The notes: generated from the letters alone by a model not told the origin. Numbered from the stretch's first letter, positions 85-64,000 are shown. The stretch is 64,000 bases of DNA from an uncultured Nitrososphaerota archaeon (GCA_964408285.1 CAYOYV010000003.1:29848-93847), one strand, 5' to 3'. Program-made: numbers and translations.

Positions 85-1335
85 ATGAAGATAGGTTATG
101 CGAAACGTGATGTGACCCCCCCAATCGGTGTGAGACTGGGAGGCTATGGCCACAGGATGGGAAAGCCTTCTGAGATGGTTCACGATCCCTTGTTCGCAAG
201 CGCCTTGCTGATCGAATCGTCCGGAGATTCACTGCTGTTCCTTCACGGGGATGTCCTTGGGGTTTACAAGGACTTCGCTGATAGTGTAAAGAGGAGAATT
301 CATTCTGGAATCGGCATTGAGCCAGGCAGGATTTTCTTTACTACGACGCATACCCACTCAGGTCCTGAGACCATAGTGCCAATGTGGCCTAACACATTTC
401 CGTATGATGAACAAGAAGCCAGGATCCTGAGCGACTGGGAGGCTGCATTCGCTGAGGCGATTGTCGAGGCCTCTGTTGAGGCCAATGAGCGCGCCTTGGG
501 CGGTTCGATCAGCTTAGGTACATCGAGAGCTCCCGATCTCACTCTCAATCGGACATACAAGAACAACGTGATCGATGATCAGATACCGTTCATGATTCTG
601 AGCAATGGCGTCCAGAAGGTCATAGTCGCGAACTACTGCTGCCATCCAGTATGCAACACGGATTCAGGAATATCGTCGGACTATCCTGGCGCGCTTTATG
701 CAGAATTGGACAAGTTGGGATTCAACTGCTTCTTCACCACAGGACCTGCGGGTGATGTTGATCCGCTAGGGAAGGGAAGGGAATTCATCGCCAATATGGG
801 TTCGCAGCTCTGTTCCGCCATAGTCAGAGAATCCGGCAATACGTACAGAGTGAAAGAAGATGTTATCGGTGCAGAAAGGTCGAAGATCTCCTTGAAGATG
901 AGAAATTCCAAGGGTCTGAGGCAGGCAAGGGCCAGATTCAAGGGAATAATGGAGGATTGTCAGAAGAAGCCTGATGACGCGAAATGCCTCTCTCGCCTTA
1001 TATATGCAGACGAAGAATACGAAGTGGCAAAGGACAGGAAAACCTCTGTCCAGACCCTGATACAGCTCGCCAAGATAGGCAAGGATATCGTGTTCATCTC
1101 GATCCCCGGAGAACTCTTCGTCGAATTTGGCCTGCAGATAAAGGCTCTTGCCACGAAAATGGGATATAGATCTACATTCGTTTCTACGTATTCGGAAGAC
1201 TATGTAGGATACATACCTGACAAGATGGCATTCAAGATACATTCGTATGAAGCAACCCTGGCGAGATGGAGCAGACTGACACCAGAAGCTGGAAGCTCCA
1301 TTATGAGGGAACTGACCAATTCATTGAAGCAGTGA
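85..1335 (+). CDS. Neutral/alkaline ceramidase N-terminal-domain family amidohydrolase
   Basis: G-x-AKRDVTPP, LGGYG, HDPLFASAL, THTHSGP metal motif, NYCCHP, SSDYPG, GPAGDVDP and IPGELF match the ceramidase-like family. Confidence 0.75.
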   Translation: MKIGYAKRDVTPPIGVRLGGYGHRMGKPSEMVHDPLFASALLIESSGDSLLFLHGDVLGVYKDFADSVKRRIHSGIGIEPGRIFFTTTHTHSGPETIVPMWPNTFPYDEQEARILSDWEAAFAEAIVEASVEANERALGGSISLGTSRAPDLTLNRTYKNNVIDDQIPFMILSNGVQKVIVANYCCHPVCNTDSGISSDYPGALYAELDKLGFNCFFTTGPAGDVDPLGKGREFIANMGSQLCSAIVRESGNTYRVKEDVIGAERSKISLKMRNSKGLRQARARFKGIMEDCQKKPDDAKCLSRLIYADEEYEVAKDRKTSVQTLIQLAKIGKDIVFISIPGELFVEFGLQIKALATKMGYRSTFVSTYSEDYVGYIPDKMAFKIHSYEATLARWSRLTPEAGSSIMRELTNSLKQ

Positions 1336-1590
1336 GGCTGAATCCAATAACGGGTAGTCTTTTCCTCGGGCTCCGATGATCATCTCTTATTTCTCGGAAG
1401 GGTGAATCGGCCGTGACAACGCCGTTTCGTGCGCACGTCTCGATGATCATATTGAGGAGGAACTATTGACTCAATCGCGCTATCCCGCTATTCATCGCGC
1501 TTACACCCAGAAGGGTCAAACACAACGGAGTCGACGCATAATGGAGTCTCAAATATTTAAATTCGCTATCGAATCCGCTCAAAAGAAGCG

Positions 1591-3426
1591 ATGAGCGTAG
1601 CTCGGCCGCTACTTGAGTATGTCTCGGATATCAAGACGAAAAAAAGCCTTTCCGAGACTTATCTAGCCCTCAAGAGATTGGTCTCGCATCACAAGAGGTA
1701 CTATGCGCTAATAGTTCTGACACTAGTGCTCTGCATAATCAGGTCGTATCTCTTCACCCTTGAGCCATTGTTTACTTCATACATAATCGATGAAGTGATA
1801 ATCGGCGGCAGATATGACCTGTTGCAGCAATACCTAGCGGTGATACTCCTCTCCGGATTGGGTGTCGGCGTGTCCGTTCTCCTGATATCGTATGTACATG
1901 GGACATTATCACAAAACATACTAAGGGACATAAGATCTGAATATTATAAGTCACTATCTGCGAAGTCATTCGGTTTCTATGATTCTGTAACGGTAGGCGA
2001 CCTTGTATCCAGAGCAACGATGGATCTTCAAGCAGTAGACGGATTTCTGCGGATCTGGCTTAGTACGATCTTTAATGCCTTTTTCTCGATCGTGGCAATA
2101 TTCTCAGTGATTTATTCGACAAGCCCATCAATGACTCTCGTGTCGATGGCGACGATGCCACTTATTTTTTACTTTAACACTCGACTTTTCGTGGAGACTA
2201 TGCCTCTCTTCAGGAAAATGCAGTTGATCCTTGGTCGTTTGAGCTCGTATATCCAACAGGATATCGTAGGGATGAAAACCGTTAGGATACTTGGCCTTGA
2301 AGAAGATATTGTCCAAGGATTCAAAGAAGTGGAACAGGTCTTTGTGAACACGGCGATTGCAGCTGGCAGGATACAGTCAATCTATATGCCGCTCTCCTCC
2401 ACTTTACTGACCTTGGGAATCGCGTTAGTATACGTCTATGCTGGCTATTCTATCAGCGCTGGCTATCTAGGCTTGACTATAGGCAGTATCATCCTCTTCG
2501 CGAGGTATATGATCAGGCTGACGTTTCCCCTGAGAGATCTGAGCATGATGTTAGGGGTATGGATCAACGCCTCTGCTGGATTGGAAAGGGTATTTGAAAT
2601 AATAGACATGCCAAGAATCATCGAAGATTCCCCCGGTGCCTTGGACATCATCATGCGGCAGGGGAAGGTAGAATTCGATGGCGTTACATTCGGTTATGAG
2701 AAGGACAGGCCCGTGTTGAATGGAGTTTCCTTCCAAGTGAACCCCGGGGAAAGGATAGCGATTCTTGGGGCCACAGGTTCTGGAAAGAGCACGCTGATGT
2801 TTCTTCTGCCAAGGTTCTATGACCCTGACTCTGGAAGCATAAGGATAGATGGGACAGACATAAGGCGATTCAAGCTTGCATCTTTAAGAAAACAGATAGG
2901 CGTGGTCCTACAGGATGTGTTCCTGTTCTCGGGAACAATCAGGGACAACATAGCGTTCGGGAATCCCAATGCCTCCCCGGAGCAAATCGTCCAAGTGGCC
3001 AAGACGGCCAGAATCCACGACTTCATACAATCCCTCCCTGAGGGATACGATACCAAGATAGGAGAACGAGGCGTCACCCTCTCGGGCGGTGAGAGACAAA
3101 GACTGACCATAGCAAGAGCCCTTCTCACGAATCCGAGGATCCTCATCATGGATGATTCCCTATCGTTCGTCGACTCAAAGACAGAGCAAGAGATCCAGAT
3201 CGCCATTGAGGAGGCGATGAGGACGCGAACAGCGTTCATCATCGCGCAGCGGCTCTCGACCGTAAAGAATGCAGACAAGATACTAGTTCTGGACGAAGGC
3301 AAGGTGTTGGAATTCGGACCGCACGACGAACTCATTGCAAGGAGGGGCGCATACAGGAGGATCTACGAATCGCAATTCATAGCGAAACGGCTCGAAGCAA
3401 ATCGCGAAGGTGAGAACCTGAGTTGA
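1591..3426 (+). CDS. ABC exporter, fused TMD+NBD (heterodimeric TM287/288-like, degenerate-site subunit)
   Basis: Six-TM N-half; Walker A GATGSGKS, signature LSGGERQR, Walker B ILIMDD (Glu to Asp), H-loop IAQR (His to Gln). Confidence 0.93.
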   Translation: MSVARPLLEYVSDIKTKKSLSETYLALKRLVSHHKRYYALIVLTLVLCIIRSYLFTLEPLFTSYIIDEVIIGGRYDLLQQYLAVILLSGLGVGVSVLLISYVHGTLSQNILRDIRSEYYKSLSAKSFGFYDSVTVGDLVSRATMDLQAVDGFLRIWLSTIFNAFFSIVAIFSVIYSTSPSMTLVSMATMPLIFYFNTRLFVETMPLFRKMQLILGRLSSYIQQDIVGMKTVRILGLEEDIVQGFKEVEQVFVNTAIAAGRIQSIYMPLSSTLLTLGIALVYVYAGYSISAGYLGLTIGSIILFARYMIRLTFPLRDLSMMLGVWINASAGLERVFEIIDMPRIIEDSPGALDIIMRQGKVEFDGVTFGYEKDRPVLNGVSFQVNPGERIAILGATGSGKSTLMFLLPRFYDPDSGSIRIDGTDIRRFKLASLRKQIGVVLQDVFLFSGTIRDNIAFGNPNASPEQIVQVAKTARIHDFIQSLPEGYDTKIGERGVTLSGGERQRLTIARALLTNPRILIMDDSLSFVDSKTEQEIQIAIEEAMRTRTAFIIAQRLSTVKNADKILVLDEGKVLEFGPHDELIARRGAYRRIYESQFIAKRLEANREGENLS

Positions 3427-4487
3427 TGTCAGGGCCTTGGGGCGCATTCTCTTCGAGGGAAGAGCAAGAGAAGAAAAGGACCGTTTCAGATAGAGTTCTG
3501 ATCAGAAGGCTATACGCCTATTCAGAGGAACACAGGAGAAATCTTTGGTTCGGGGTTCTCGCAATACTCCTAAGCTCCCTGATGGGGCTGGCTTCACCAT
3601 ACATGCACAAAGTGGCGATAGACGAGATAATAGGGCCAGGCAACGTATCTGGTTTCTTATGGTGGGTCCCCCTGTTCGTCATCGTGGTCGGGGGAAACTA
3701 CCTAATGCAGTACATTCAGACGTTTCAGATGCGAATAGTCGGAGAGAATGTAGTGGCGAAAATGAGGGACCGAATGCTGGAGAAATTGCAGATCATCTCA
3801 CTCAAATACTTCGCTGAAGGAGAGATTGGAAGAATCATATCGAGGCCGATTAACGATGCCAACACCATCAGAATCTTTTTGAGGATTGGAGTAACAAGTA
3901 TTTTGATAGATGCGTCTTCGATCCTAGGTTCATTCGCCATCATGTTCGCTTTGGACGCGAAACTCGCCTTGTTGGCTCTTGCCACATTGCCAATTGCAAT
4001 TGGCTTAGTCTGGTTTATGGGGAAATATTCTAGGGCAGCAGCTAGGAAGGCGCTCAGTACACTGGGCGGCTTGACCGCAAGAATGCAGGAAGACTTGTCA
4101 GGAATCAAGGTCATTCAGGCTTTCGTCGAAGAAGAACAGGCCGAGCGTACATTTGACAAGGCACAGGAGAGCAATATTGCGGCTAACATGAGGGCGATCC
4201 TCATATCCTCTTCATATATGCCTCTAGTTGCATCCATGAGACTAATCGGCACCCTCATAATCCTGTGGTTTGGAACGCTATTAGTCAAAGATGGCGCCCT
4301 ATCGATAGGAACCCTCGTTGCCTTTACAGAATATCAATTCATGTATTTCATGCCCTTGATGGATCTCGTGGTAGTATACGATCAATATCAATCCACGATG
4401 GCGGCCGTAGAGAGATCGTTCGACCTGATCGACACGAGCGTCGAGGTCAGAGAGGCACCCCTAGAGAAGAGAGTGGATCTACCATGA
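3426..4487 (+). CDS. ABC exporter second subunit, transmembrane half (split or frameshifted from the NBD)
   Basis: ABC membrane domain; TGATG overlap with the previous stop; ends in the TMD-NBD linker (RVDLP). Confidence 0.85.
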   Translation: MSGPWGAFSSREEQEKKRTVSDRVLIRRLYAYSEEHRRNLWFGVLAILLSSLMGLASPYMHKVAIDEIIGPGNVSGFLWWVPLFVIVVGGNYLMQYIQTFQMRIVGENVVAKMRDRMLEKLQIISLKYFAEGEIGRIISRPINDANTIRIFLRIGVTSILIDASSILGSFAIMFALDAKLALLALATLPIAIGLVWFMGKYSRAAARKALSTLGGLTARMQEDLSGIKVIQAFVEEEQAERTFDKAQESNIAANMRAILISSSYMPLVASMRLIGTLIILWFGTLLVKDGALSIGTLVAFTEYQFMYFMPLMDLVVVYDQYQSTMAAVERSFDLIDTSVEVREAPLEKRVDLP

Positions 4488-5239
4488 TAGATGAGATCAG
4501 TTTCCAGAATGTGGACTTTGGATACGACCCAAGAGTCTTGGTTTTGAGGAATATTAGCTTCACGTTACCCCATGACAGAAAACTTGCGATTGTCGGCAGA
4601 ACTGGAGCTGGGAAAAGCACGATTGTGAACCTCCTCGCCAGATTCTACGACCCGACAGCGGGAAGAATATGCGTCAATGGGCATGATCTTAGGGACATCG
4701 CGATTTCATCACTGAGAAAGCGTTTGGGCATAGTTCTTCAGGATTCGTTCCTGTTTCCCCTTTCCGTCAGGGAAAACATAAGGATTGGAAATCAGGGAGC
4801 CTCTGACGAAGAGATAGTTCAAGCAGCAAGATCAGTAGGAGCTCACCAATTCATAACGAGATTGCCGCGAGGATATGATTTCATGATACAAGAGAGCTCA
4901 TCGAATATCTCGATAGGGCAAAGACAGCTTATTAGTTTCGCAAGGACACTCCTGTCAAATCCAGAGATCTTAGTATTGGATGAAGCCACATCATCAGTGG
5001 ACCCCTATACTGAATTGGTGATTCAAACGGCGTTGACGAAATTGCTCAAGAACAGAATGACATTGATAGTGGCTCACAGACTATCAACCATCAAGCTTTG
5101 CGATGAGATCTTGGTGCTGGAGAATGGTCAAATAGTGGAGAAGGGCTCTCATAATGACCTCATGGAGAAGGAGGGTCTATACAGCTCCTTCTACAAACTT
5201 CAATTCCGAGAAGAAACCGGACTAGAAGGTCATCCTTAG
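4484..5239 (+). CDS. ABC exporter second subunit, nucleotide-binding half
   Basis: ATG at 4484 overlaps TGA 4485-4487; ISFQNVDFGY, GRTGAGKST, ISIGQRQ, LVLDEATS, VAHRLST. Confidence 0.85.
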   Translation: MIDEISFQNVDFGYDPRVLVLRNISFTLPHDRKLAIVGRTGAGKSTIVNLLARFYDPTAGRICVNGHDLRDIAISSLRKRLGIVLQDSFLFPLSVRENIRIGNQGASDEEIVQAARSVGAHQFITRLPRGYDFMIQESSSNISIGQRQLISFARTLLSNPEILVLDEATSSVDPYTELVIQTALTKLLKNRMTLIVAHRLSTIKLCDEILVLENGQIVEKGSHNDLMEKEGLYSSFYKLQFREETGLEGHP

Positions 5240-5254
5240 CGGGACCTTCCAAAG

Positions 5255-5755
5255 TCAGCTCCTCTTCACTGTCAATGTTATGTCATTCCAAGCCTTGACC
5301 ACAGTCCTCCCGTCCGCAGTCACTCGTAGGCTGATCGGGTATCCGGAGAAGCTCACTGTGTCTTGAAGACGTCCTTTTACCAAGAATTGCATCGAAGTTG
5401 TAGATTGCACTGATTCCAGCACGAACGAGTAGGTGAAATTGGAGCCTTCCTTCACCAATGATTCTCCGCCGGGTTTCAAAAATGAAATGGATGGATCTGC
5501 GCTGAATGTGAGCTTAACGTTGTGGCTCCTCTTGTCAAGATTCTCAAGCATTATCTTCAATGTGGAATTCTGAGCCACGCTTATCTCCGAAGGAGTCACA
5601 GAGAACTCGAGGACCTTCACAGATTCACCTGGGTTCTGAGACAGCCACCAGCTGTAAGCAAGGTACCCGACCATTACCAGAATCATCGCTGCTATCAAGA
5701 GCTTCAGCCATGGCGTCCCAGTTTCCTCCTCGGAATCTCCGGATCGGTAGAGCAT
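5255..5755 (-). CDS. Hypothetical membrane-anchored protein, single TM plus beta-rich Ig-like domain
   Basis: TM WLKLLIAAMILVMVGYLAYSWW followed by beta-strand-like segments; start at 5755 preferred over 5845. Confidence 0.6.
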   Translation of the reverse strand: MLYRSGDSEEETGTPWLKLLIAAMILVMVGYLAYSWWLSQNPGESVKVLEFSVTPSEISVAQNSTLKIMLENLDKRSHNVKLTFSADPSISFLKPGGESLVKEGSNFTYSFVLESVQSTTSMQFLVKGRLQDTVSFSGYPISLRVTADGRTVVKAWNDITLTVKRS

Positions 5756-5884
5756 CTTTTGAGGCCGTCCCCCGGTAATTCCGTGAAATGGTGCTTCAGT
5801 TAATAAATGCATTAGTGATAATGCAGTGAAGATACAAATGAGCAAGAGTCACAGATCGTTCTGCTATTTCCCGCACTGCCCTGC

Positions 5885-5908
5885 GGAAAAGATTATAAGC
5901 GACTTTCC
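5885..5908 (+). promoter_or_regulatory. grpE-dnaK-dnaJ promoter: BRE/TATA (TTATAA 5893-5898) bracketed by a GGAAA...TTTCC inverted repeat
   Basis: GGAAAAGATTATAAGCGACTTTCC; GGAGGTGA ribosome-binding site at 5946-5953. Confidence 0.5.
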
Positions 5909-5958
5909 AGCCGATTCACGGGATATTCCGATCAAGGCGTTTATTGGAGGTGAGGCTC

Positions 5959-6573
5959 TTGGCTTCAGAGCGTGATATTCCCGGGGAGGAAGATCGCTCC
6001 CGCACTGAGGAGACTTCAATGCCTGAGGATAGAAAGGGCGAAAAAATAGAGATTCACGACGATTTGGAAATCGAGGATCTAACGAAAGCAGTCGAGCATG
6101 AACGCAAGATGGCAGAGGACTTGAACAAGAAGATCCTCTATCTTCAAGCCGACTTCCAGAATTACCGTCGACGAGCAGAGGCTGAGCTCGAAGAGGTCTC
6201 ATTGTATGGGAGTCAGAATCTAATATATGGGCTATTGAAGGTGGCTGATGAGCTTGAGCTTGCAGTGAAGGCAGGAGAGGGCTCAAAGGAATCCGGTCCC
6301 CTAGTAAAGGGAGTCAAAATGGCTCTCAAGAGATTGGTTGAGTTGCTGCAAAACGAGGGGGTTTCGAGGATAGAGGCAATAGGAAAGCAATTTGATCCGA
6401 GTGTTCATGAAGCAATAGAAAGTGTTCCAACCGCGGATCTCCCCGAGGGGAGAGTCGTTGAAGAGATCAGGAGTGGATTCATGTTGAGGGGAAAGGTTAT
6501 CAGGCCCTCCCTAGTCAAGGTGTCTTGCTTGTTGACTTCGAAAGATTCTAAGAAAGGTGAATCGAAAGAATGA
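5959..6573 (+). CDS. grpE: Nucleotide exchange factor GrpE
   Basis: [21 protein letters not shown] and [16 protein letters not shown] motifs; TTG start at 5959 lies 5 nt after GGAGGTGA; operon with dnaK. Confidence 0.95.
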
Positions 6574-8453
6574 GTGAAGTGAAATTAGAGCCCGGTGAGA
6601 AGATCGTTGGAATAGACCTTGGGACGACGAATTCTGCGGCCGCCATTATGGAAGCGGGAAGGCCTCTCGTTGTGCCTAGCGCAGAAGGGCCAACTGCCGC
6701 TGGAAAGATGTTTCCTTCCGTAGTAGCGTTCACAAAGGAGGGAGAGCTTATTGTTGGAGAACCGGCGAAACGCCAGGCAGTCACAAATCCAGAGGGGACG
6801 ATCTTCGAGATAAAGAGAAAGATCGGAACCGACTACAAAGTCAAGATCGGGGGAAAGGACTACACGCCCCAGCAGATTTCCGCCTTCATACTACAGAAGA
6901 TAAAGCGAGATACTGAGACCTTCTTGGGCAGACCAATCAAGAAGGTTGTAATAACGGCTCCGGCCCATTTCAATGACAATCAGAGACAGGCAACAAAGGA
7001 TGCGGGTGAGATAGCCGGTCTCGAAGTTGTCAGAATAATCAACGAGCCCACTGCTGCTTGCTTGGCCTACGGTTTGGACAAAGCTGACAAGGAGATGAAG
7101 ATACTCGTCTTCAGCTTCGGGGGCGGGACTCATGATGTCACCATCATGGACTTCGGCCAAGGAGTATTCCAGGTAATTGCTACAAGTGGGGATACTCAGA
7201 CAGGCGGGGCGGACATCGACAACGCGATCGTCGACCTTCTCGTGGATGAATTCAGAAAGCAAAACGGAATGGATCTGAGAAAAGACAGCATGGCCATGAT
7301 CAGACTGAAGGAAGCTGCCGAAAAGGCAAAGATAGAGCTTTCCACTCTGACTACAACGGACATGGACCTGCCCTTCATAGCCCAAGACGTGAGTGGACCC
7401 AAACACTTCCATTACACTCTGACGAGGGCTAAACTCGAGGACTTGGCACTCCCCATCGTGAGAAGGGTAGAGGGCACGCTGACAAAGGTTATGACTGATG
7501 CCAAGTTCGAACCGAACAACGTAGACAAGATAATCCTGATAGGGGGTCAAACCAGAATGCCCCTCGTAAGGAAGTTCGTCGAAGATATGATGGGAAAACC
7601 GGCAGAACGAGGCGTTGATCCAATGGAGTGCGTTGCAGTTGGTGCAGCAGTTCAGGGGGCTGTTTTGGCCGGCGAAGTAAAGGATCTCGTCCTATTGGAT
7701 GTCACGCCTCTTTCATTGGGTGTGGAAACGCTTGGAGGAATCGCCACAAGAATTCTCGAAAAGAACACTACTATCCCAACGAAGAGGAGCCAGATATTTA
7801 CAACCGCGGCCGACTTCCAGACATCAGTGACAGTTCATGTGATTCAAGGGGAGAGGTCCATGGCCGCTGACAATACATCTCTCGGAATGTTCAACCTTGT
7901 GGGAATTCCACCCGCTCCGAGAGGAGTCCCTCAGATTGAGGTCACCTTCGACATCGACGCAAATGGAATATTGAATGTAGGAGCCAAAGACCTCGCTACT
8001 GGGAAGGAGAACAAGATTACGATAACTGCATCAACGAAACTCTCCAATGAGGAGAAGGAGCGGATGGTGAGGGAGGCCGGGCAATTTGCGGAGCAGGACA
8101 AGAAGAAACGCGAGAAGGCAGAGTTGCTCAACAACGCTGATTCCTTGCTCTATACCGCGGAGCGCACCAAAAAGGATCTCGAACAAAAGATAACCACTGA
8201 ACAAAAAGACAGAATAGACAAAGCCGCAGCCGAGCTTAGGCAAGCCATTGCAGCGACAGAGATTGATGAGGCTTCTGTGAAAAAGAGCATGGACAGTCTG
8301 GCGAAAATACTTCAGGAGGTAGGAACAGCTGCCTATCAACAGGTGCCTAAACAACCCCAAGAAACGAAGGAAAAACCCAGCGAATCTGGACAGAAACCGG
8401 GCGACGAAAAGGTAGTCGACGCTGATTACAAGGTCGAAGATGAGAAGAAGTAG
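6570..8453 (+). CDS. dnaK: Hsp70 chaperone DnaK
   Basis: [53 protein letters not shown]; ATGA overlap with grpE. Confidence 0.98.
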
Positions 8454-59534: not shown

Positions 59535-60125
59535 ATGTCTTGGGATGCTGTCCAGAGGAAGCCAAGCGAAGAAAAGCGAGTTGAGCTTGAGTCCATCAGA
59601 GACATGATATCGGAGCTTTCGGAGGTAGGAACATACTATTCGGTGAGGGCCCCTTCTGCCCCTCTTGCTGAGTTTCTTTGCGCAAGGAAGGGACATCAGA
59701 CATCAATATTTGGGGAAGAGACATCCGTAATCAGGATTTTCGAGGTGGATAGAGTTCTGTCATCCAGATTCGGAATAGCGTTCGCGCTGAACTGGGAAAG
59801 GGGTTTACTATCCTCTAAGCCGTTTCTCGAGGCGGTGGACAACAACTATGAGCGCATTGTGAAGGATCTGAATATGGACGCCCAACTCATGGCAAGACTA
59901 CTTGAACTGAAGCCGAGCCTTCTTGAGACATCCTACATAGGGGATGGAGAACAAGGTCCGGGCGTGTATGGCGCTCCCGAGATCATGATCAGGAAGCCAA
60001 CCATGTGCATCGAAATGAGATTCCCTATCTCGAAATTAGGGAACACGAGGGAGACATTCCTCTCCGGATTAAGGGCTATCAAACGAATCGAGCACAAGAT
60101 CCTCTCCGACCGGGAGAATCACTGA
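59535..60125 (+). CDS. Hypothetical protein
   Basis: 196-aa ORF filling the gap, protein-like composition; no family recognised. Confidence 0.6.
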   Translation: MSWDAVQRKPSEEKRVELESIRDMISELSEVGTYYSVRAPSAPLAEFLCARKGHQTSIFGEETSVIRIFEVDRVLSSRFGIAFALNWERGLLSSKPFLEAVDNNYERIVKDLNMDAQLMARLLELKPSLLETSYIGDGEQGPGVYGAPEIMIRKPTMCIEMRFPISKLGNTRETFLSGLRAIKRIEHKILSDRENH

Positions 60126-60290
60126 ATGCGCCAGGGCTTGATATGCCCCGATTCCCGGTTCATGTGGGGAATCTCATCTAGCCTCATCTGACGGTCTGAT
60201 CTCCCGGGAAGCGACCTTCTTCGAATCGAAGGGCCAAATCCTTGGCGTTTCGTGATGGGATGCGCTTTTTGGTGACGCCTAAGAACACTT

Positions 60291-60582
60291 TGCATTATCC
60301 AGGAATCGGTCGAAAGAGTTCTCGTATTCGTCGGTCATCCGGATGACGAGATAATTGGTGCCGGAGGAACAATAAGCAAGCTTCACTCCGTCGCTTCTTG
60401 TTGAAATAACCGAATTCATGGAGAAGAAAAGCAAGGCCATGTCGCTCTATTCCTCTCAGGTTCGGGCTTTTCCACAGATCATGGACCATCTGAAAGCACT
60501 TGCAGAAGTGAGGGGAGTGGAAGCCGGGGCTAGATACGCTGAGGCGTTCCTCAGGGCGCCAGTCCTGCTCGAACTCAGATGA
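60291..60582 (+). pseudogene. PIG-L/LmbE-family N-acetyl-sugar deacetylase remnant with internal deletion and frameshift
   Basis: RVLVFVGHPDDEIIGAGGTISKL (60315-60383) is joined in another frame to PSLLVEITEFMEKK...YSSQ...RYAEAF (60388-60582). Confidence 0.8.
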
Positions 60583-60621
60583 TAGGATGAATCCTCTACC
60601 CAATGGTTCTTCTGTGATGAT

Positions 60622-61320
60622 TCACTGTAGGATGGACTCCAGGAGATCGAAGACAGCGGCAGCACCAGAACTTGCCGACACCGCCTCCGATGGGGCAGAA
60701 ACAACGATCACGATGTCTCCTTGCTCTGAGGTGTGTCCAAGAATCTCTTTTTCGTCCTTGGATGAGAAGTCGGCCAGCCATTCTCCAATGCCGATTATCT
60801 GAATCCTGCCCTTGTCCAAGAGGCATGTGGTAGCACCTGTGCCCCCATACCTGACCACCAGGTCCCGGAGCCTGATTGGATTCACTGCACTCACTTCAAT
60901 CCGCCTCAAGATGTAAAGGGCCTGTTTCCTGTCGAGGCCAAGATATTCAACGCTGATTGGGAAGGGGCCAAGCAATACGTTCATGATTGATGCAAGAATC
61001 TCATGCCCAAAGGGCCCGAGTCGGAAGCCGGTAGCTGATGCTATCGCCACGTGGTTCAATACGAGCCGACCCATCAAGCTTCTGATCGATCCGGTTCCAA
61101 GGCCAAGGCTCGATTTCATTTCGCTTCTGGGGGTGACTTCCTTTCTCCCTAGAAAGATCACACTCAGCAAAAGATGACCGTGATTGAAACCAACTGGCTT
61201 CTTCCTATCTTGCGCCATGATGGACCGCAATAATCGAAAGGCGTCCTTGTGCTCCATTGCTATTTGATACTGTCCAAAGTTACTAAAGGCTTTCGTCGTG
61301 CTCTCGTATCCATAGCACAT
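60622..61320 (-). CDS. DUF4443-like archaeal protein with N-terminal winged HTH
   Basis: R...SSLGLGTGSIRSLMGRL and LRDLVVRYGGTGATT patterns; start may be 61257. Confidence 0.7.
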   Translation of the reverse strand: MCYGYESTTKAFSNFGQYQIAMEHKDAFRLLRSIMAQDRKKPVGFNHGHLLLSVIFLGRKEVTPRSEMKSSLGLGTGSIRSLMGRLVLNHVAIASATGFRLGPFGHEILASIMNVLLGPFPISVEYLGLDRKQALYILRRIEVSAVNPIRLRDLVVRYGGTGATTCLLDKGRIQIIGIGEWLADFSSKDEKEILGHTSEQGDIVIVVSAPSEAVSASSGAAAVFDLLESILQ

Positions 61321-61368
61321 AGATTGATTTGTCCATACCTAGTCAGAGAGTAGCCATCAGTGGGGGGA

Positions 61369-62703
61369 TCAGGGATTCTCAAGCTCTGGCCATTTCGAGA
61401 CATCTTGGTAATACCAAGCCACTGATTCTCCATCACTTACCGTATATGCATCGGCTCCGACCTGTCCGGATTGCCATTCTTTCTGATCCGCGTTCCATCT
61501 CCACCAAAGCCAACCGTGGTTGCTTTTTGTGATCTTGCCGCCGACTCCTGCAATAGACTTGACGAATGAACCGTATTGAGATTGGACGTTTTCTACTTGG
61601 GTGCTCCCCAAGACTTCGATGGTTAGGTTAAGGAGGGTTGATCCATTTGGGACTCTAGTGCCATTGAACCATACCCTTGTGCCGTTCCCGAAATTCACCA
61701 GGAGATTGCTTCTGACAGTATATCTAGACAGAAGCAATTCCAATCTGGCGACTCTGCTGTTCACGTCGACTAACTGGGAATTGAGGTAGAGGGATAGGCT
61801 AGCTAGCAACACGCAACCTATCAGGGCAGCAACTGCAATGGTCGGCCATATTCCTCTGTCGCCCGTGAAGGATTGGCGCCGGGACTCGGTTCGCCTGCCC
61901 TCCTCCCCTCCAACGGAGGCAAGGGCATCAAGATGAAGAGGGATCTGCCTAGGCCTCAGCACAAGAGTCAGGACAAGCACGAATGAAGCTGATATCATGA
62001 CGAGCCAAGTGGCTAGTGGGAATGCTCCTGAATAGAACGAGATGTATATTGAGCTTACCCATAAGATGGATGCGATCACGACCCACGGTTCTCGAAGATA
62101 TGGCGCCAGCTCATGACTCAGACGAACTACTAGATCTGAAAGCTTAACTGGCAGTGCCTTGCCTGGTTCAGGCTTGGCATGAAGTGACAATAGGCTGATG
62201 ATGGGCGGTCCAGCTATTCCAAAGAAAACGACATTCGACAGCTGATGTACAAGGCCAACCGGGAGTGGGAAATTCATCGTTACGATTCCAGCCCAAAATG
62301 ACCCGTAGAACATGATTCCCGTCAGAGCATTCGTGTACAAGTCATATGCCAGCGTGAACAATCCTCCAAGGAATCCAAGAAACAGTGCCCTCGGGGGAAT
62401 TGGACTCGTCTTCGATGCCAGATATGCTGCCACGACGTAAAACAGCTCGCCAGTGATCACTATAGCAAGAGTTATCAGATTCGTGCCATAGGGATTGAGG
62501 GTTCCGTAGACAATCCAGGTCATGGCTCCCACAAGTGATCCCCAGATAGGGCCCATCAGATACGCCCCCACGAAAACCAGAAGATCCATTAATTTCACAT
62601 TAGGGATGTTGATCAAGAGATAGTTGGTTGACAGCGCAAGGGCGATCAGCAATGATGTGAGCGCGAGCCTGAGAGTCGGTCTGGCTCTTGGGCTTCTGAT
62701 CAT
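61369..62703 (-). CDS. ECF S-component (CbrT-like) fused to a C-terminal DUF4430 transcobalamin-like domain
   Basis: N-terminal IPNVKLMD..VFVG...GP..G S-component helices; C-terminal NFGNGT, YGSFVKSIAGV, WLWW, VGADAY.VSDGESVAW; own TATA CTTAAATA at 62729-62736. Confidence 0.75.
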   Translation of the reverse strand: MIRSPRARPTLRLALTSLLIALALSTNYLLINIPNVKLMDLLVFVGAYLMGPIWGSLVGAMTWIVYGTLNPYGTNLITLAIVITGELFYVVAAYLASKTSPIPPRALFLGFLGGLFTLAYDLYTNALTGIMFYGSFWAGIVTMNFPLPVGLVHQLSNVVFFGIAGPPIISLLSLHAKPEPGKALPVKLSDLVVRLSHELAPYLREPWVVIASILWVSSIYISFYSGAFPLATWLVMISASFVLVLTLVLRPRQIPLHLDALASVGGEEGRRTESRRQSFTGDRGIWPTIAVAALIGCVLLASLSLYLNSQLVDVNSRVARLELLLSRYTVRSNLLVNFGNGTRVWFNGTRVPNGSTLLNLTIEVLGSTQVENVQSQYGSFVKSIAGVGGKITKSNHGWLWWRWNADQKEWQSGQVGADAYTVSDGESVAWYYQDVSKWPELENP

Positions 62704-62741
62704 TGGAACGGGTCGAATTGACCCGCTCTATTTAAGTCTTA

Positions 62742-63803
62742 CTATTCCCTCTTTGTGGGTTCTGCCAAGGCTTGGAGCAGCTTCTCCTCATCATAAGTGA
62801 TGAAGTTCAACCTAGCTCCCATGCATGACCATCCATCAAGCTGTGAGGTCGAATAATAGGCAGTTGCCAATCGGCCGCTGTCGAGAAGAACTGTGCTGGG
62901 ATATCCACAGTCCGCATTCGGGCAATCGTCGCCGAATATCATCTCTTTCTGGGTAATCCATGTTCGTCCTGCATCTGTGCTGAGGAGAGCTCTTGCTCCG
63001 AAGGGATTGGCTCTTCTGCCGTAGGAGAGCAGGACTTCACCTCCTGAGAGAAGGGTCAGGCAAGCAGGATGTTCATATTCGTGAGTGATGTCCTGATGAA
63101 ATTGCCAAGTTCGGCCTTCGTTATGACTGAAGCTTGTTGAAAGATGACTGTCCTTTTCCGATCTCATTGCAGCCATCATCTCTCCATTTGGAAGCATTAG
63201 GATGGATGACTCGTTCTCGTTTTCAGCCAATGTGGCATAGTGCTGCCAAGTGACTCCACTGTTCTCCGAGCACAGAATATGAGTGCGGACGACTTCCACT
63301 TTTCCTTCCTCATGTCTGCAAGGACCATATATGGGCATGAGAAGGCTCCCGTTTTGCAGGGTCAGCATCTGGCCATAAGGTGAGTATCCACGGAAATCCC
63401 TGACGTTCAGTTCATATGGTTCTTCCCAAGTTCTCCCGCCATCATGAGATCTCGCAAGATATGTGTATAGCCTATTCATTGTCGGATCGCATCGCTCATC
63501 GCCAACGTAATTGCCGTTTACATGATAAGCAACCACCACAATCCCATCCTTTGTCACTCCAATTGAGGGATTCCTATCGTCCAGTGGAGAGTCAGCGACA
63601 ACGATTGGATCAGTCCAACACAAGCCATCATCGTGAGATATTATCGCCTCAAGCCTCCCGTTGATGCCCATGTGACCTGCCCCCGCTCGATACACAATGA
63701 GAATGTGTTCGCCCCCCATGGTACTGACAACAGGAAAATATCCGCAATCCCTGCCTAGGACCAGCTTTCTTGAAGAAGGCAACTCCTCAATCTTCACGGG
63801 CAT
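62742..63803 (-). CDS. Sialidase-like beta-propeller (BNR/Asp-box repeats)
   Basis: Five Asp-boxes: SHDDGLCW, SHDGGRTW, SENSGVTW, SHNEGRTW, STDAGRTW; YRAG, DDRNP, GYPS; no signal peptide. Confidence 0.85.
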   Translation of the reverse strand: MPVKIEELPSSRKLVLGRDCGYFPVVSTMGGEHILIVYRAGAGHMGINGRLEAIISHDDGLCWTDPIVVADSPLDDRNPSIGVTKDGIVVVAYHVNGNYVGDERCDPTMNRLYTYLARSHDGGRTWEEPYELNVRDFRGYSPYGQMLTLQNGSLLMPIYGPCRHEEGKVEVVRTHILCSENSGVTWQHYATLAENENESSILMLPNGEMMAAMRSEKDSHLSTSFSHNEGRTWQFHQDITHEYEHPACLTLLSGGEVLLSYGRRANPFGARALLSTDAGRTWITQKEMIFGDDCPNADCGYPSTVLLDSGRLATAYYSTSQLDGWSCMGARLNFITYDEEKLLQALAEPTKRE

Positions 63804-63870
63804 GATGCGTGCCTTACATCGGAAATCCATTTAAGGATTGAATGCCACCATGACTCCATTGTCTATGTAG

Positions 63871-63893
63871 CCATGAAGTGATATACTTCATGG
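63871..63893. promoter_or_regulatory. Perfect 9-bp inverted repeat CCATGAAGT-GATAT-ACTTCATGG upstream of the sialidase-like gene
   Basis: Read directly; followed by a GGAAC/GTTCC hairpin. Confidence 0.45.
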
Positions 63894-64000
63894 AACGCGC
63901 GTGTTCCTTCGACCCTATTGGGCTTATTTCGCGCTCTTGGGCGGATCGTCTGTCCGTTGCCGGATGATCTTGAATTCAGCTCCTCTGAGAAGGCCATAGG

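Follow-up and report, generated by a model that had tools for sequence, protein, structure and literature searches.

A fused archaeal protein joining a CbrT-like ECF S-component to a transcobalamin-beta-like domain: a candidate tethered corrinoid catcher

P0001, a 444-aa protein encoded on the minus strand at positions 61369..62703 of the 64,000-nt stretch of DNA analysed here (the window; uncultured Nitrososphaerota archaeon, GCA_964408285.1 CAYOYV010000003.1:29848-93847), joins in one chain an S-component of an energy-coupling factor (ECF) transporter, which we call S, and a DUF4430 domain, which we call D. The best explanation for this protein is a CbrT-type S subunit of a group-II ECF transporter that is joined, via extra helices, to an outward-facing domain with the beta-domain fold of transcobalamin. 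We give a probability of about 0.6 to the reading that P0001 catches corrinoids with a tethered domain and feeds them to a carrier of the CbrT type. To our knowledge, the textbook definition of ECF transporters includes no extracytoplasmic binding protein.

The gene and its parts are listed below, all in window coordinates (AF2, AlphaFold2 model; pLDDT, predicted local distance difference test; TM, transmembrane; K+R, lysine plus arginine residues).
61369..62703, minus strand: whole fused gene encoding P0001, 444 aa plus stop; ATG start, single frame
62176..62703, minus strand: ECF S-component domain, CbrT-like, residues 1-176 (PF12822, profile A2, AF2, Foldseek)
62089..62175, minus strand: predicted cytoplasmic linker, residues 177-205, of which 188-203 form a helix (5 K+R; pLDDT 61-71)
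61960..62088, minus strand: hydrophobic hairpin of two TM helices, residues 206-248 (hydropathy; AF2 pLDDT ~50-60)
61852..61959, minus strand: Arg-rich loop, predicted cytoplasmic and disordered, residues 249-284 (7 K+R; pLDDT partly <50)
61723..61851, minus strand: membrane anchor and helical stalk, residues 285-327 (a single helix in both models)
61372..61722, minus strand: DUF4430, transcobalamin-beta-like domain, residues 328-444 (4 sequons)

The first-pass annotation of this stretch had described a single 444-aa frame, and direct translation found 0 internal stop codons in it. Contigs from two other public runs, belonging to different studies, are identical to the window across the junction, with 0 differing letters and 0 gaps (X3, 61491-62760; X4, 61300-62562). 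These are assembled contigs and not raw reads; since both agree with the window, the whole inter-domain region is reproduced independently. The architecture, including the insert that separates the two domains, is shared by the orthologue P0003 (444 aa, 78% identical), and shorter fused forms of 320-354 aa are found in protein clusters P0004, P0005, P0006 and P0013. Four further species-level genomes carry fused forms (L009, L010, L016 and L022, which are the same as L063, L064, L065 and L068), and true open reading frames (ORFs) are fused in 4 of 29 foreign loci; at L013 and L014, direct translation places stops between the halves.

Both domain calls made earlier proved correct by Pfam and by a six-frame search of the genome: P0001 matches PF12822 (ECF_trnsprt) over residues 12-138 with E 6e-7, and PF14478 (DUF4430) over residues 368-433 with E 8.5e-5. 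The full-length AF2 model, made from an 80-row alignment (mean pLDDT 81.4; predicted template modelling score, pTM, 0.54), contains a helical bundle at residues 7-176 with pLDDT mostly >90, two insert helices at 206-224 and 230-248 with pLDDT 50-60 and mean Kyte-Doolittle hydropathies of 1.57 and 2.35, a loop at 249-284 that is disordered, a single long helix over 285-327 comprising a TM segment and the stalk, and an alpha/beta domain at 328-444 with pLDDT >90. This is the anatomy that had been proposed, namely an S bundle, a two-helix insert, a further TM and stalk helix, and a DUF4430 domain that bears sequons, and the model and the residue counts agree on it. An NCBIfam search of P0001 returned zero matching models, and a single-sequence search of the PDB with it returned nothing relevant.

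By the positive-inside rule, positively charged loops lie predominantly on the cytoplasmic side of a membrane. In P0001, 3 K+R residues lie at the N-terminus, and loops 177-205 and 249-284 contain 5 and 7 of them, respectively. The N-x-S/T sequons (N340, N347, N353, N359) all fall within the C-terminal domain; the median number of sequons per protein is 4 in the D family and 0 in the S family. The predicted topology that fits is N-in with 9 TM helices and the C-terminal domain outside, given an odd number of TM helices, charged loops that are predicted to be inside, and sequons confined to D. The outward-facing DUF4430 domain is probably N-glycosylated, judging from these sequons. The anchor and stalk at residues 285-327 are homologous to the N-terminal signal-anchor of stand-alone D proteins. 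The fusion is topologically trivial: the cytoplasmic C-terminus of S meets the cytoplasmic N-terminus of a signal-anchored D. Among 10 fused forms compared, the hairpin and the Arg-rich loop are present in P0001 and P0003 only. We considered an origin of this insert from a small gene with two TM helices lying between S and D, and rejected it, as no such ORF was found in the long S-D gaps of L012 and L020.

For the S half, a CbrT type had been proposed, and the profile search bears this out. Profile A2, comprising 61 S sequences and searched against all PDB chains, matches CbrT (6FNP_A) at full length with E 3.2e-11, the sole S-component reached up to an E of 10. On these sequence matches, the S half groups with CbrT alone among the solved S-components. 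AF2 and Foldseek also give it the six-helix S-component fold. The AxxxA (small-xxx-small) motif of helix 1 serves in docking on EcfT. At this position the consensus of the A2 family is A..A...AL, and P0001 has S17-x-x-x-A21. Lactobacillus delbrueckii has an ATP-dependent transporter for cobalamin and cobinamide, ECF-CbrT (PDB 6FNP), for which hemin is no competitor; it needs no extracellular partner in proteoliposomes, and the cbrS gene adjoins cbrT in the nrdJ-cbrS-cbrT-pduO cluster (Santos et al. 2018, eLife; PMC5997447, available portion of the text). The likeness to P0001 extends beyond the S half, for which CbrT is the sole significant match among solved S-components, to the group-II layout with a shared EcfAA'T module and to a host that is an apparent B12 auxotroph. 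In contrast, CbrT is a stand-alone protein of 182 aa, whereas P0001 adds 3 TM helices and a 117-residue extracellular domain, is encoded by an archaeon, and has neither nrdJ nor pduO as a neighbour of its gene.

The D half, residues 328-444, has the transcobalamin beta-domain fold by fold comparison, in line with the resemblance to the C-terminal domain of transcobalamin that had been pointed out. Its identity to the beta domains of transcobalamin, intrinsic factor and haptocorrin, and to the bacterial DUF4430 structure 3U7Z, is 15-20%. Unlike in these three carriers, the domain in P0001 is tethered to the membrane and forms one chain with a transporter subunit. Pfam and AF2 detect no alpha6/alpha6 barrel domain in the 444 aa of P0001, which is therefore not a member of the transcobalamin family and has the beta domain alone in common with it. 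We considered BtuH of Bacteroides as a possible DUF4430 protein and dropped this comparison, since neither transcobalamin nor a Pfam family is mentioned in the available part of PMC8941943 and BtuH is absent from our fold-search results. As a separate observation, the D-type domain occurs in 2-4 tandem copies in the large surface proteins P0009, P0012, P0019, P0022, P0053, P0055, P0107 and P0139.

The two halves of P0001 are usually encoded by separate genes, as the first-pass annotation had supposed. Searching 1.84 billion representative proteins yielded 491 relatives at E up to 1e-3, and we classified 150 representatives of these. The 150 listed comprise 71 proteins with S only, 63 with D only (anchor, stalk and domain), 10 with tandem D repeats, one fragment of 79 aa and 5 fused proteins, namely four of 320-351 aa and P0003 (444 aa). 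P0001 and P0002 are both the window's own protein (444 aa), and P0004 came from a separate search; the S-type class numbers 74 when the three 444-aa fused proteins are counted in. An odd form with half of an S-component and a D is P0023 (212 aa).

A scan in which each prokaryote species was represented by a single genome gave 80 loci, every one archaeal (Brockarchaeota, Bathyarchaeia, Conexivisphaerales, Marsarchaeota, Thermofilaceae and other Thermoproteota). In 67 of the 80, S is followed by D as a separate, adjacent gene on the same strand, mostly with an overlap of 4-26 nt. The two are fused in 4 loci; in 5, S alone lies in the fetched stretch, some of these being at contig ends; 3 fall outside the adjacency rule, and in one neither half was called. 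Even in genomes that were scored as having D only at first, a divergent S-component adjoins D in 8 of 12 loci. The orthologous halves of this split S-D operon of other Thermoproteota resemble those of P0001 in sequence (36-50% identity), order, strand and the anchor-stalk-domain build of D, and a DUF4443 gene is often a neighbour common to both. The difference is that there the halves are two genes, usually parted by a short spacer with a ribosome-binding site or overlapping by a few bases, whereas here they form one chain, which in P0001 and P0003 also carries the extra two-helix insert and Arg-rich loop.

How close the two states are is seen in the sister genus g3, where S and D lie in the same frame at L014, L018 and L023 and are parted by a TGA, a GGTGA-type ribosome-binding site and an ATG; with a shared frame and a single TGA, one substitution can fuse or split S and D. 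The window's own family has fused forms in genera g1 and g2. A second family has them in genus g4, where they were found in 2 of the 17 genomes sampled and where most genomes with an examined locus have the split arrangement. Since fused forms are scattered over two families, we infer that fusion or fission happened more than once, judging from this distribution and not from a tree. The fusion is a stop-loss variant, a rare state of a common, translationally coupled archaeal operon, and not a new system.

For uptake, the S-component has to be served by an ECF module, and the genome (1.82 Mb in 46 contigs, 93.7% complete) encodes one. Its single ecfA-ecfA'-ecfT cluster, the genes that the first-pass annotation had advised locating, lies at G000:C12, on a different contig from the fused gene; EcfT matches PF02361 with 107.6 bits and is preceded by two ATP-binding cassette (ABC) ATPase genes. 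The earlier description of P0001 as self-contained fails in one respect: a module encoded on another contig is still needed. There is one further S-component in the genome, RibU-like and located on C2, and the genome has the group-II ECF layout, with S-components using a common module.

The same genome encodes corrinoid-dependent enzymes. Five of its proteins have the B12-binding domain PF02310: an MtaC-like protein next to MtaB, a corrinoid protein beside a URO-D-type methyltransferase, and three B12-binding radical S-adenosylmethionine (SAM) enzymes. Matches to CbiC, CobD/CbiB, CobS and a PduO-type adenosyltransferase were not detected in the 93.7%-complete genome, an incompleteness that keeps absence from being proof, and BtuC was not found either, the sole FecCD-type match being an ABC-3 (Zn/Mn-type) permease. 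From its gene content, the organism seems to use B12 and to be unable to make it.

A similar picture was obtained across the phylum, in a sample of 401 genomes. The S/D family is present in 145 of them and the corrin-specific marker CbiC in 110; both occur together in 3 genomes, the module only in 142, CbiC only in 107 and neither in 149. CbiC is thus found in 3/145 carriers of the module as against 107/256 non-carriers, counts in which relatives are not independent, so that the nominal P value is given no weight here. In family f15, the only family with both, CbiC is missing from all 6 genomes that carry the module, and the module is missing from all 15 that carry CbiC.

Apart from this, the genes of the methanol-type corrinoid methyltransferase system in this archaeon, whose nearest relatives are named Brockarchaeota or Thermoproteota, can be placed: MtaB and the MtaC-like protein are encoded at G000:C13:18058-21396 (L056), and a second corrinoid pair at G000:C45:1-1613 (L059).

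With these data in mind, one may propose a mechanism for P0001. According to this proposal, the DUF4430 domain, held above the membrane by its stalk, would capture a corrinoid, either cobalamin or some other cobamide, out of the pore water of the sediment, and this capture would raise the local corrinoid concentration at the S-component. The S-component would then bind the corrinoid and dock on the EcfA-EcfA'-EcfT module, whose genes lie on another contig, and ATP hydrolysis would lead to release of the corrinoid into the cytoplasm, where the imported cofactor could serve the MtaB/MtaC-like methyltransferase system and the B12-binding radical SAM enzymes. The binding of corrinoid by D, its hand-over to S, docking on EcfT unhindered by the extra helices, and expression of the gene are what we infer in this proposal.

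Several observations weigh against this reading. On the protein itself, both Pfam matches score just below gathering, with 30.1 bits against 30.7 for PF12822 and 23.4 against 23.8 for PF14478; in the six-frame genome search both are above the cut-off, with 33.7 and 26.2 bits, DUF4430 homologues score up to 101 bits with PF14478, and the PF12822 match, borderline when taken alone, is backed by 74 S-type homologues. Foldseek with the full model favours other S-components, namely PanT (6ZG3_C), 4HUQ_S, TmRibU and FolT at probability 1.00 and target-normalised TM-scores of 0.60-0.73, with ThiT also among its S-component matches, and 6FNP is absent among the 49 matches listed. The S fold being generic and 6FNP lying outside these matches, it is by sequence and not by fold that the S half is assigned to CbrT. 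The relative placement of the S-component and DUF4430 domains is not reliably predicted by the model, which at a pTM of 0.54 is therefore uninformative on how the two domains sit together. On the side of the D half, profile A1 reaches haptocorrin by sequence only at E 0.35. No transcobalamin-type alpha partner (prenyltransferase- or terpene-cyclase-type Pfam families) was present among 110 neighbour proteins from 20 loci, so that a ligand would be held differently from the way it is held in transcobalamin. DUF4430 repeats are also found in big surface proteins with PKD, dockerin, NosD and CarboxypepD_reg domains, and the domain therefore need not always serve B12 uptake. As for genomic context, no B12 gene adjoins the fused gene in the window, and the anti-correlation with CbiC is one among kin, behind which lineage or habitat could stand. 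Finally, binding and transport by every member of the S-D family are predicted here from genes alone.

A different cargo is the strongest rival to a corrinoid catcher. The S-D pair may import heme or another large tetrapyrrole or cofactor, with the transcobalamin-like domain re-used for this purpose, and the variety of surface proteins in which DUF4430 occurs would agree with such re-use. The lsa1836-1840 operon of Lactobacillus sakei, the only printed ECF operon that we found with transcobalamin-like extracellular proteins, is assigned by its authors to heme uptake, and they describe its S-component as being without the cobalamin-binding residues (bioRxiv 10.1101/864751, as far as its accessible text goes). 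ECF-type heme import also exists in Staphylococcus lugdunensis, according to the accessible part of PMC7299338. The L. sakei operon resembles the archaeal system in its genetic coupling of an ECF S-component with a transcobalamin-beta-like protein outside the cell, and for L. sakei it is proposed, in the same accessible text of the preprint, that the beta-like protein collects the ligand and delivers it to the S-component. The L. sakei operon differs in being bacterial and in encoding separate proteins, with S, AA' and T all in one operon together with a secreted beta-like protein (Lsa1839) and an alpha-like one (Lsa1840), whereas P0001 has a beta-like domain only, membrane-anchored and fused, and its ECF module lies elsewhere. 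Against a different cargo speak the match of the S profile to CbrT, whose cobalamin uptake is not competed by hemin, the near-exclusion of the module and corrin-specific CbiC across the phylum, and a genome that encodes corrinoid-dependent enzymes and in which the B12-synthesis markers tested were not found. We therefore consider a cargo other than a corrinoid unlikely.

Just as improbable, in our estimate, is that the DUF4430 domain is an accessory and not a receptor. It may, for example, stabilise or position S under the S-layer, or shield or gate its pocket, leaving substrate binding to S by itself, which is how every characterised ECF transporter operates. CbrT is active in liposomes without a partner (PMC5997447, in its available portion), the 110 neighbour proteins include no alpha-domain partner, and DUF4430 repeats also stand beside PKD, dockerin, NosD and CarboxypepD_reg domains in big surface proteins.

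That the fusion is an accident, whether through faulty assembly or sequencing or as a recent stop-loss read-through without a function of its own, in an organism that really uses two proteins or a damaged one, is very improbable: a single base change could indeed fuse the in-frame genes of the three g3 genomes, and the insert has low AF2 confidence, but the contigs of two studies agree across the junction, P0003 keeps the full frame with the insert, fused forms recur elsewhere, both in other protein clusters and in four additional genomes at species level, and the topology of the fusion is coherent.

What would follow from a corrinoid catcher in this position concerns both the ecology of these archaea and the ECF mechanism. 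Among the sediment archaea of these lineages, use of corrinoid enzymes is the rule and B12 synthesis the exception; for Bathyarchaeia, B12 synthesis is reported in two genera only, and ECF transporters find no mention in the available part of that report (PMC10321748). The S/D family, with its 145 of 401 genomes, is a concrete and widespread candidate for B12 acquisition, and the fusion offers the simplest test construct, consisting of one gene and the ECF module. A natural S-component with a tethered extracellular domain also bears on receptor-like accessories in ECF systems. If the proposal is true, toppling and docking on EcfT remain possible for an S-component that drags 1-3 extra membrane helices, which constrains the toppling model. 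The main value of the fusion would lie in providing natural Rosetta-stone evidence that S and D act together. It is tempting to generalise, and we hold it to be slightly less than an even bet, that a tethered, transcobalamin-beta-like corrinoid catcher is routine for ECF transporters in a large part of Archaea, with the fusions as Rosetta-stone evidence of one physical unit. We rate as new the fused archaeal variant, an operon with an S-component and transcobalamin-like proteins being already in print for a bacterium (L. sakei). No description of the archaeal S-D pair or of its fused form was found in the literature searched, a search that left most subscription journals outside, so that absence is not proven.

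The genes on either side of the fused gene are the following.
60622..61320, minus strand: downstream neighbour, a 232-aa protein with a winged helix-turn-helix (wHTH) and DUF4443 (PF14544, E 5.7e-10; PH0730-like_N/CggR_N)
62742-63830, minus strand: BNR/Asp-box protein (sialidase-like, PF13088), 362 aa, ending 38 nt upstream of the fused gene

In the other loci scanned, the S-D pair has no BNR/Asp-box gene beside it. No cobalamin riboswitch was matched with Rfam at E up to 1 in window positions 60000-64000, and in the 13 of 20 related loci that were scanned, only tRNAs reached the gathering score. One neighbourhood among the 20 loci is clearly linked to B12, that of L051 (G338:C2:59500-72500, 1158-7775), in which two CdhD genes, a RACo-type gene and a gene for a CooC/CbiA-type ATPase surround the S-D pair. 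CdhD is the corrinoid iron-sulphur protein of carbon monoxide dehydrogenase/acetyl-CoA synthase (CODH/ACS), and RACo is the reductive activator of corrinoid proteins.

The DUF4443 gene adjoins the S-D pair, either immediately downstream or in divergent orientation, in 11 of 20 loci and in 37 of 80 (L036-L047 and L055; 37 of L062-L141). We considered the DUF4443 wHTH protein as a B12-sensing regulator of the module and rejected this candidate: the adjacency is real, and the family is too widespread, being present, mostly in single copy, in 311 of the 401 genomes. B12 producers and CbiC-positive families are included among these, and no specific link to the module can therefore be claimed. PH0730, a DUF4443 protein, is mentioned in the literature that we found, and the family is uncharacterised. 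In four loci (L036, L039, L040 and L055), belonging to genus g4 and one other family, the DUF4443 gene is followed by a RimK-like ATP-grasp gene and a gene for a protein of ~206 aa.

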